Virus record (IMG/VR): IMGVR_UViG_2667527582_000002
DNA from: a virus
Lineage: Duplodnaviria > Heunggongvirae > Uroviricota > Caudoviricetes
Direction: 5' to 3' (one strand)
DNA length: 17,422 nucleotides
Below, piece after piece: positions 1 to 2,330 of this stretch. Under the pieces are notes generated by a model. It had not been told where the DNA came from. It saw nothing but the letters and a program-made list of their open reading frames with translations, and did no database searches. Numbering within the stretch: position 1 is the first letter of the stretch; each line of letters starts with the position of its first letter. The position numbers were made by a program, and so were the translations under genes.

Positions 1-414
1 TCAGAAAAAGATGATATTGAATCGCCCATTGAAAAACTGGAGGGCAGCGTCGCTGATCTGAATAAAAAATTGTCGGTGCTGATTCCTTCTGAAGATGAAA
101 AAAAACGCCGCGATGAGCAGTTTGCGGCGTTTTACGATTATTGCATTGAAGTTACTCTCGCAGGAATTTTGTGAAGATTTTTGAGGAGGGTAAATCTCTT
201 CAGTAAGCTTAATGGCGGACGCTGCAATTAATTCAGGAAGGTCCGCAAGGTCATCTGTCAGTGGATATGATGAAAAATCGGCGGCAGTTCTGTTAAGAAG
301 CGCTTTAACTAATTCCTTTTCCTTCTCCGGCAACAAGTTGATTAGAGCTACGACTGCTTGCCTGAGTGCGATTAAATCAGCAAAAGTTTGTTTAGGTAGA
401 TTTGTGTAATCCAT
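1..414 (-). CDS. hypothetical protein, divergent from the lysis cassette; identity unknown
   Basis: Complete 137-codon ORF with ATG at 412-414 (minus strand) preceded by a GAGG Shine-Dalgarno 5 nt upstream. The N-terminal ~80 aa look like a genuine acidic, helical protein. The C-terminal ~55 aa are F/I/R-rich, low-complexity and lie antisense to a protein-like + strand reading frame (1-174), so the true extent is uncertain. Confidence 0.35.
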   Translation of the reverse strand: MDYTNLPKQTFADLIALRQAVVALINLLPEKEKELVKALLNRTAADFSSYPLTDDLADLPELIAASAIKLTEEIYPPQKSSQNSCESNFNAIIVKRRKLLIAAFFFIFRRNQHRQFFIQISDAALQFFNGRFNIIFF

Positions 415-527
415 AGTCGCCTCTGTGTTTATCAGATTGACATCCTCCTCCCGCCAGTGCCCATCACTGGTGAGGTAAGATTTAACATATCCGGGGATTT
501 GAAGCCGATAAATCCTGATAAATATCC

Positions 528-1555
<1,028 letters not shown>

Positions 1556-1806
1556 ATTAATATTAAATCGGATTATTTTTAGCGCTGAATGTGAAATTTA
1601 AATAAAAAGGACTCTTCCATGAGTCAAAATCCTTGAAATCTTAAGGGTAAGATAAAAGGTCATTAGACAGAATGACACGTTTTATTAATAAATAAAGCTA
1701 TTGTTTCATTCGTGTGTTTTTCTTTACAAAAGTAATCCTTGCTATGGTTGGTTAATCATGCGTTAATGGTGTTCTGGTTTGTTACAAAATTATCTGAAGC
1801 AGTCAT

Positions 1807-1815
1807 TGTTATAAT
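1807..1815 (+). promoter_or_regulatory. candidate sigma70 promoter for the cold-shock gene (extended -10 TGtTATAAT) with ~100-nt 5' UTR
   Basis: TGTTATAAT at 1807-1815 matches the extended -10 consensus. No good -35 at 17-bp spacing. Lies in a 360-bp AT-rich leader upstream of the csp start, consistent with the long 5' UTRs of CspA-family genes. Confidence 0.3.
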
Positions 1816-1918
1816 TTTATTATTTGTACCTCTTGAGATTTCCTTGTTGGTTTTTCTCTCTGATATTTTTTTTCGGACCATTCTGCCCAAGGGCTAACTT
1901 CTTCAAAAGGTAATAATG

Positions 1919-2131
1919 ATGTCTAACAAAATGACTGGTTTAGTGAAATGGTTTAACCCTGAAAAAGGTTTTGGTTTCATCACGCCGAAAGATGGTAGCA
2001 AAGATGTGTTTGTCCATTTCTCAGCTATTCAGAGCAACGATTTCAAAACGTTAACTGAGAATCAGGAAGTCGAATTTGGTATTGAGAACGGACCTAAAGG
2101 CCCCGCGGCTGTTCATGTTGTGGCACTTTGA
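1919..2131 (+). CDS. cspI: CspA-family cold-shock protein (prophage-borne, CspI-like)
   Basis: 70 aa, [23 protein letters not shown]...VHFSAI with RNP1 (KGFGFI) and RNP2 (VFVHF) motifs. Position directly downstream of the R/Rz lysis genes matches the Qin-prophage arrangement. ATG 1916 is an alternative start. Confidence 0.85.
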
Positions 2132-2330
2132 GGTAGAAAATATTACAAACCATATTCACTTTAGATGCCCGTGTTGCCATGGTTCTCAGTATAGAACATC
2201 ATCTTTTGATGTTTCTGACAGGAATCCTTTCGGGGCAAAATGTATCTTTTGTAAATCAATGATGATTACATTTGATAATATTTCACAATACTTAAATGTT
2301 AGCCGTCTATCGTTAGATTTAAGAAAGTGA
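2115..2330 (+). CDS. small Cys-rich zinc-ribbon-like protein (possibly YnfQ/YmcF-like, from memory only), overlapping the 3' end of the csp gene
   Basis: ORF in another frame overlapping the last 17 nt of the csp gene. Motif C-P-C-C-H...(x21)...C-x2-C ([10 protein letters not shown]...AKCIFCK) suggests a metal-binding ribbon. No obvious Shine-Dalgarno, so translational coupling is possible. Followed directly by a terminator. Confidence 0.45.

Follow-up and report, generated by a model that had tools for sequence, protein, structure and literature searches.

A stretch of 17,422 nucleotides from a tailed phage genome (Caudoviricetes; IMG/VR record IMGVR_UViG_2667527582_000002), called the window throughout, was analysed with emphasis on its first 527 positions, where an open reading frame (ORF) on the minus strand lies directly ahead of an endolysin gene. 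By their gene content, positions 1-1555 make up the distal two-thirds of a lysis cassette of Qin/phage-21 type in an Escherichia coli lambdoid prophage. The genes follow each other in the order S21-type pinholin (outside the window), late gene of the YdfR/DUF1327 family, small gene on the minus strand, signal-anchor-release (SAR) endolysin and Rz/Rz1. The C-terminal part of the YdfR-like late gene is referred to below as the A-module and the opposite-strand small gene as B. Positions 1-1100 showed 99.6% identity to Qin-like prophages in E. coli HS and in numerous further strains, 99.5% to phage PhiR63_1 and 87% to the PhiR12 phages. In these relatives the annotated order is class II holin (essQ), YdfR/DUF1327 gene, opposite-strand hypothetical protein of 86 aa, lysozyme (rrrQ) and DUF2514 protein (rzpQ). 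Judged from sequence, the lysis cassette is essentially an ordinary one of the phage-21/Qin pinholin-SAR endolysin type: every feature that defines a phage-21-type cassette at the sequence level could be found, the holin among them through an identical contig (L030). It is considered highly probable that this anatomy, a frameshift that lengthens B in the window and the status of B as a coding gene hold jointly.

The first-pass annotation found no holin gene in positions 1-527. This was borne out, as none of the open stretches of at least 25 codons in all frames of positions 1-560 contained a transmembrane-like segment of 19 residues. The highest 19-residue Kyte-Doolittle mean in this region was 1.62, for a segment (TFADLIALRQAVVALINLL) that includes D, R and Q, and no holin overlapping the region in another frame was found. 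The holin had been expected upstream of position 1, and it is located there in L030, a contig 100% identical to window 1-600 which extends upstream and was reached via lookup of the exact 137-aa protein encoded by the long minus-strand ORF. An S21-type pinholin ORF lies 353-568 nt before window base 1 in this contig; its product of 71 aa is of class II, with Met codons at both position 1 and position 4 (dual-start motif), and it is read from the same strand as the endolysin. The near-identical holin of E. coli HS matched PF04971 ("Bacteriophage P21 holin S") with an E value of 3e-34. The holin seems to be missing because the window begins inside the gene that separates pinholin from endolysin.

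That separating gene had been suspected from a plus-strand frame at 1-174, read as the possible 3' end of an upstream gene, and could be assigned to the DUF1327/YdfR family, with products of 173 aa in L030 and 183 aa in PhiR63_1. The frame is open from the window edge, comprises 57 codons plus a stop (TGA at 172-174) and reads SEKDDIESPIEKLEGSVADLNKKLSVLIPSEDEKKRRDEQFAAFYDYCIEVTLAGIL*, while in relatives it runs on to a TAA at window 204-206 and ends in ...CIEVTRRNFVKIFEEGKSLQ or ...EVTRRNFVKIFEEGKSLQ. The full-length relative of PhiR63_1 matched PF07041 (DUF1327, E 2.6e-42) over residues 1-112 and phrog_2091 over residues 1-183, and the DUF1327 domain is also carried by the L030 protein. The part inside the window (residues ~117-173) lies beyond this domain and belongs to the C-terminal A-module (phrog_2091, phrog_36381), homologues of which were found in ORFs of Salmonella, metagenomes and Shiga toxin (Stx) phages. 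In E. coli HS (L001, 3653-3988) the long YdfR-like gene is listed in RefSeq as a pseudogene "missing C-terminus"; its ORF is intact (183 aa in PhiR63_1), and the C-terminal extension is not covered by the family model.

On the minus strand, the described ORF of 137 codons is present at 1-414 (ATG at 412-414, TGA stop at 1-3), preceded by the good Shine-Dalgarno sequence noted for it, GAGG at 423->420, 5 nt before the ATG. In the alignment with relatives the sole indel is a CT insertion in the window (ACTCTCGC against ACTCGC; in longer context GTTACTCTCGCAGG against GTTACTCGCAGG), by which, seen from the minus strand, GAG becomes GAGAG immediately ahead of the B stop codon. Both overlapping genes are therefore frameshifted. 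Without the CT, the minus-strand ORF stops at a TAA (window 152-154) after 86 aa and the YdfR-like gene is 15 codons longer, reaching the TAA at 204-206, so that the usual arrangement consists of two convergent genes with a 53-nt overlap. The distal third of the 137-codon ORF, described as low-complexity and antisense to the plus-strand frame at 1-174, was confirmed as such and equals its last 51 codons; these lie outside the conserved protein, and no homologue was found for them in domain searches. The first-pass choice between a divergent gene inserted into the cassette and a spurious reading thus divides along the ORF itself: a genuine gene of 86 codons is inserted, and the distal 51 codons are frameshift read-through of antisense sequence. 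The apparent anomaly of the locus (no holin, a long divergent ORF and an antisense overlap of 174 nt) would accordingly reduce to the window edge and a lineage-specific 2-bp frameshift. Both window alleles are altered, B gaining a basic tail of 51 residues and A losing its last 15 residues including the conserved RRNF.K end, and since both genes are affected the A/B module may be impaired in this lineage.

Comparison with 5,426 complete E. coli genomes gave best matches of 99.3-99.6% identity with spans 2 bases shorter than the query, and the 137-codon allele was not found among them. The exact 137-aa protein is on record (WP_159420128.1) for at least 22 contigs, drawn from NCBI, ENA and Logan, and the allele is taken to be real because of this record. 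All ten of the contigs among the matches listed for it belong to one draft assembly series (JRRx/JRSx), and the CT insertion is carried by L030 and other draft assemblies of this series. We read the 137-codon length as a lineage-specific 2-bp mutation, with a small residual chance of a pipeline artefact. It is hardly credible that the 137-codon form is itself the relevant, neo-functionalised product, or that the extra CT arose in assembly. The occurrence of the exact sequence on contigs from three sources speaks for such a product, as does a hydrophobic run in the extension (LLIAAFFFIF). This run has 10 residues and is too short for a transmembrane helix, and the extension as a whole is strongly basic, without a homologue, and antisense to conserved coding sequence; the allele is absent from the matches in complete genomes, and the restriction of the displayed contigs to JRRx/JRSx drafts suggests a single lineage or pipeline.

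IS66, the psp operon, gshA and other genes appear as upstream context in JRSx scaffolds. These are scaffold joins of 10 N and not rearrangements; in L018-L028 the joins lie 20-85 nt beyond the position matching window base 1 and put unrelated chromosomal genes beside the prophage. The repeated ydfR/holin region evidently breaks the short-read assemblies of the JRRx/JRSx series.

Features of the lysis region and its flank, with positions in the window
Feature	Position	Strand	Basis or remark
3' end of DUF1327/YdfR-family late gene (A-module)	1-174	+	L030 protein ends ...CIEVTLAGIL*
Frameshift extension of B, 51 codons plus TGA at 1-3	1-156	-	SNFNAIIVKRRKLLIAAFFFIFRR...; pI 12; antisense to A-module
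Terminator-like hairpin, 19 nt past wild-type B stop	98-133	-	Within KKRRDEQFAAF codons of the plus-strand gene
2-bp CT insertion site	about 155-158	both strands affected	Alignment with three relatives
Conserved 86-codon core of B (phrog_2572; WP_001557934.1-like)	157-414	-	Acidic, pI 4.6, three predicted helices
Shine-Dalgarno GAGG of B	420-423	-	Read from sequence
Inverted repeat CCAGTG-N5-CACTGG, perfect 6-bp	453-470		Between B and endolysin; near-identical element before the endolysin in L008
Conserved upstream region of B with invariant block ATATTTATCAGGnTTTATC (525-507)	484-527	-	E. coli, Salmonella and metagenome homologues
Candidate weak sigma-70 promoter of B: -35 TTTATC, 17-nt spacer, -10 TATGTT	512-507, 489-484	-	By eye
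SAR endolysin, rrrQ-type, T4-lysozyme family	528-1061	+	PF00959 E 5e-25, phrog_7
Rz-like i-spanin, DUF2514, rzpQ	1058-1555	+	PF10721 E 2e-38, phrog_312
Rz1-like lipoprotein (o-spanin) ORF nested in rzpQ	1209-1505, alternatively about 1251-1505	+ (+1 frame)	Lipobox LTSC, ORF residues 34-37
cspA thermoregulator, RF01766, full-length	1761-2177	+	Rfam 109.8 bits vs gathering score 78

By comparative evidence B is a genuine, fast-evolving small protein-coding gene of 86-93 codons. It is already catalogued as phrog_2572 and as "hypothetical protein" in RefSeq, and the profile match to that family covers the whole protein (E 4.4e-53, residues 1-86 on positions 1-86 of 86). In five clades from E. coli, Salmonella and metagenomes, compared at 65-69% DNA identity, the B frame contains no stop, while four of the other frames carry 4-8 stops and the antisense shadow frame 0-1 (one stop in four of the five clades). 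The B frame also reached the highest BLOSUM62 score in six of six cross-clade comparisons, with values of 127-178 against 91-131 for the shadow frame. The start codon and Shine-Dalgarno sequence are conserved, natural length variants differ by whole codons (+2, -2, -2 and -4 aa), and distant homologues with 38-57% identity were found (P0021, P0022, P0025, P0026 and P0050). AlphaFold2 modelling from a nine-sequence alignment predicted helices at residues 8-25, 30-48 and 56-74 (mean per-residue confidence, pLDDT, 71.6); the predicted helices are amphipathic and the C-terminal tail, rich in S, P and Q, is predicted to be disordered. A fold search gave generic helical matches only. The ORF that is everywhere listed as a hypothetical protein thus behaves as a real gene. 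The shadow frame on the plus strand (212-409) was rejected as a gene, given its stop in four of five clades and its lower score at the protein level.

Several observations weigh against this reading. The ratio of nonsynonymous to synonymous substitution rates (dN/dS) of B is 0.5-0.96 (93-aa clade), which indicates weak constraint, against 0.3-0.5 for the partner gene; within E. coli, codon differences that change the amino acid outnumber silent ones, e.g. 9 against 4 between HS and PhiR12_1. The family is narrow and without a domain match, several natural alleles including that of the window are frameshifted and persist, and the antisense shadow frame is almost open as well. These points would suit an ORF that is not translated and merely shadows conserved DNA, namely a 3' untranslated or regulatory region of the late transcript or an antisense RNA. 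Such an explanation is considered improbable: it would have to accommodate the open B frame in five clades beside a shadow frame stopped in four of them and remaining frames with 4-8 stops, the consistently highest similarity of the B frame at the protein level, the conserved start codon and Shine-Dalgarno sequence and the length changes by whole codons. The amphipathic character of the helices, predicted by modelling, points in the same direction, and no Rfam match was found at B.

Word-indexed and exhaustive searches found B only in lambdoid prophages of E. coli, Salmonella and closely related bacteria, together with a few metagenome contigs; a scan with one genome per species gave a sole B locus in E. 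coli and no wider taxonomic spread. The B protein had no significant match in Pfam, NCBIfam or PADLOC. The label DUF1823 (PF08853), given to B in the deposited genome of phage PhiR12_1, does not hold, as the match is partial and scores 12.9 bits (E 0.13) against a Pfam gathering threshold of 25 bits, and a match to GCIP_C (E 0.011) was likewise below threshold. Two further candidates from the exhaustive HMMER search, P0020 (a repeat protein of 975 aa) and P0023, were judged spurious or low-complexity. A role as holin or antiholin was rejected since B is an acidic soluble protein (pI 4.6) and has no transmembrane segment (maximum 19-residue Kyte-Doolittle value 1.62). A type I or II toxin-antitoxin pair formed by A and B was also rejected, as the genes are convergent, neither product is hydrophobic and no toxin match was obtained in PADLOC, Pfam or NCBIfam.

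Wherever a B homologue is encoded, it overlaps tail-to-tail by 53-59 nt with a late-strand ORF whose last ~45 residues are homologous, with the shared C-terminal pattern ..(K/R)(R/Q)R(D/H)(E/H)(E)N..AF....(R/K)(N/K)F.(K/E)(L/I)....Q... The N-terminal part of this ORF varies, being DUF1327 in E. coli and L036, a fragment of DUF1327 in L012 and an unrelated 100 residues in L035, and in Salmonella, L009 and L017 the A-module alone forms stand-alone ORFs of 73 aa. The position of the pair differs as well. E. coli, L012 and L036 carry it behind the holin/YdfR genes and ahead of the endolysin, and Salmonella-type prophages carry it after the DUF2514 spanin, before DUF1441/terminase. In E. coli A starts 4 nt past the holin, and its Salmonella counterpart overlaps the stop codon of Rz. 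B was never seen apart from this conserved 3' overlap with a late-gene module, and it moves with the module between two positions of the lambdoid late region. The full module is present in 294 of the 5,426 complete E. coli genomes, most related cassettes having ydfR followed directly by the endolysin.

These data raise the question of whether A and B form a functional two-gene module, in which B would be an antagonist or partner of the A-module of the YdfR-like late protein and the convergent overlap would provide reciprocal antisense control; its roles might include controlling lysis timing or a host target, for instance RNase E. All B homologues, from five clades and three genomic contexts, overlap a homologous late-ORF C-terminus in spite of the varying N-terminus (none, DUF1327 or other), and A is always placed for co-transcription with the lysis genes. 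However, the physical overlap is by itself enough for B and the end of A to be inherited together, and the A-module occurs without B in L008 and in Stx1 and Stx2 phages (L032-L034), as the N-terminus or middle of longer late ORFs beside unrelated opposite-strand ORFs. YdfR of E. coli K-12, reported as a protein of 103 aa, binds RNase E's catalytic domain and co-purifies RNA, but this interaction maps to residues 1-72, i.e. to the DUF1327 domain and not to the A-module (PMC13232886). A functional pair of this kind is regarded as unlikely. Still more speculative, and rather unlikely, is the idea that A-module and B constitute an undescribed mobile convergent unit, in which B made in the lysogen would restrain a leaky YdfR-type late protein, through its product or through the antisense overlap. 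If it were true, prophage silencing or lysis timing would be coupled through the unit to host RNA decay, given the RNase E binding of YdfR-type proteins in K-12, and the gap between holin and endolysin would be a general hotspot for opposite-strand cargo.

The opposite-strand ORFs beside A-modules that lack B are either members of phrog_1853 (104-118 aa) or an unannotated ORF of 233 aa. Because unrelated opposite-strand ORFs recur in it, the gap between pinholin and endolysin is, as far as gene content tells, a variable slot that has repeatedly held opposite-strand cargo. The phrog_1853 family occupies this slot on the minus strand of L008 (2053-2409) and L033 (2821-3135), in E. coli prophages and Stx2a phages, where it adjoins a late ORF that begins with the A-module. 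The 233-aa ORF, which is protein-like, lies between the YdfR-like gene and the endolysin of Stx1a/Stx2a-converting phages (minus strand; L032 2008-2709, L034 2002-2703) and had no Pfam, PHROG or PADLOC match. It overlaps the 3' ~250 nt of an annotated plus-strand ORF of 162-263 aa, and one of these two readings may be wrong. A limited literature search found no description of the convergent A-module overlap, of the recurrent opposite-strand cargo or of the opposite-strand ORF itself. Should the slot ORFs prove to be expressed in lysogeny, new prophage accessory functions could usefully be sought there.

Candidate expression signals could be recognised on both sides of B. The bases of the invariant block upstream of B are, on the plus strand, the endolysin leader, in which an A/T-rich block GATAAATCCTGATAAATATCC (507-527) is invariant just before the endolysin start. 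Salmonella prophages also keep the block ahead of their B homologue, although no endolysin gene lies behind it there (L013, 5866-5890), and it is for this reason more than an endolysin leader. Past the B stop, the terminator-like hairpin consists of a 10-bp stem AAAACGCCGC/GCGGCGUUUU (133-124 with 111-102), a loop of 12 nt and a run of eight U (105-98), with a folding free energy of -17 kcal/mol and a z-score of -2.07. Salmonella (ACGCCGC/GCGGCGU) and the L012/L036 clade (ACGCCACC/GGUGGCGU) have a hairpin at the corresponding site, which makes three clades in all, and the residues of the partner gene encoded at this site differ between those clades (RR..AA against RHH..VA). In three of the four B-less loci examined (L008, L033 and L034), the G+C core of the stem contains a wobble pair or a mismatch. 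The G+C content of B is 0.42, that of the endolysin 0.52 and that of the structural genes 0.53.

From these features B is tentatively seen as a moron-like accessory gene, a reading that we rate as possible and somewhat less than probable with respect to how the gene is expressed and acts. B would be an accessory unit of low G+C content that was inserted opposite to the late genes and is transcribed from a weak candidate promoter of its own in the conserved upstream block, overlapping the endolysin leader, and its transcript would be stopped at the conserved hairpin within the A-module coding sequence. B would therefore be made without need of Q-dependent late transcription, most probably in the lysogen while the late genes are off. 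The product, a small acidic cytoplasmic protein with three predicted helices, would most likely act by binding another protein. Across the conserved tail-to-tail overlap of 53-59 nt, late and B transcription would collide and each would dampen the other, making the two mutually antagonistic. As in morons, the gene is present or absent at the same position among close relatives and differs from its neighbours in G+C content. Conservation of the upstream block even where no endolysin lies behind it, conservation of the post-stop hairpin in three clades and the different late-region position of the A/B module in Salmonella prophages are further points for this reading.

Some of the evidence on these signals counts against the moron-like reading. 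The consensus promoter scan gave no sigma-70 promoter for B, and the candidate found by eye matches the consensus hexamers at 3/6 and 4/6 positions only. Covariation in the hairpin amounts to one compensatory pair (G-C to A-U), a result equalled by 47 of 500 shuffles, and the U-tract behind the hairpin is strong in E. coli only. Folding of the B leader (415-500) with RNAalifold gave no convincing conserved structure (-3.4 kcal/mol). The explanation as a whole, comprising cassette anatomy, frameshift, coding status of B and its moron-like mode, is nonetheless considered fairly probable.

Phage 21 is the prototype of the pairing of a pinholin with a SAR endolysin. The cassette resembles it in its class II PF04971 holin with Met codons at 1 and 4, the SAR endolysin triad, the Rz-like gene with an embedded lipoprotein and the same order and strand of these genes. 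It differs by the two extra genes between holin and endolysin (the DUF1327/YdfR-like gene and the opposite-strand B), by an endolysin of rrrQ type and by an i-spanin of DUF2514 type. The Qin-type arrangement essQ-ydfR-rrrQ-rzpQ of E. coli HS has the same families in the same order, and downstream cspI, ynfN and gnsB are also common to both. In the common form, represented by EDL933, the endolysin comes immediately after a short YdfR (114 aa, DUF1327 only) and B is absent, whereas here an A-module of ~70 aa and B are added.

In lambda, the bor gene lies downstream of Rz on the opposite strand of the late region. B is similar to a moron of the bor type in being small and low in G+C, in running counter to late transcription and in being present in only some related phages, and the Salmonella A/B module is placed between Rz and the terminase genes. 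Bor, however, is a lipoprotein with a serum-resistance phenotype, while the B product is predicted to be acidic, soluble and helical; B has a putative promoter and terminator, and it overlaps a late gene by 53-59 nt. The slot ORFs of Stx and Qin-like phages (phrog_1853 and the 233-aa ORF) share with B the slot, the orientation and a neighbour containing the A-module, but their sequences are unrelated to it.

The gene that follows B was annotated at first pass as a SAR endolysin, an assignment that agrees with the T4-lysozyme family match given in the table. Its N-terminus is weakly hydrophobic and rich in Ala and Ser, and the triad E-x8-D-x5-T begins at residue 35; on account of this N-terminal segment and the triad, the protein is classed as SAR-type. 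No Shine-Dalgarno sequence is visible ahead of its start codon. The inverted repeat between B and the endolysin has a near-identical counterpart ahead of the endolysin in L008 (2421-2437), a locus with a different opposite-strand gene.

An Rfam scan of positions 1-2500 gave the cspA thermoregulator as the sole real match; a match to GcvB at 97-276 was dismissed as chance (18.6 bits against a threshold of 42 bits). The thermoregulator match leads into a cspI-like cold-shock gene (PF00313) at 1916-2131, and a hydrophobic ORF of 52 aa (1739-1897) that sits within this leader is probably spurious. Otherwise the window contains ordinary late DNA of the lambda-like kind, with cspI and its thermoregulator leader followed by genes for DUF1441, terminase, portal, protease-capsid and tape measure proteins.

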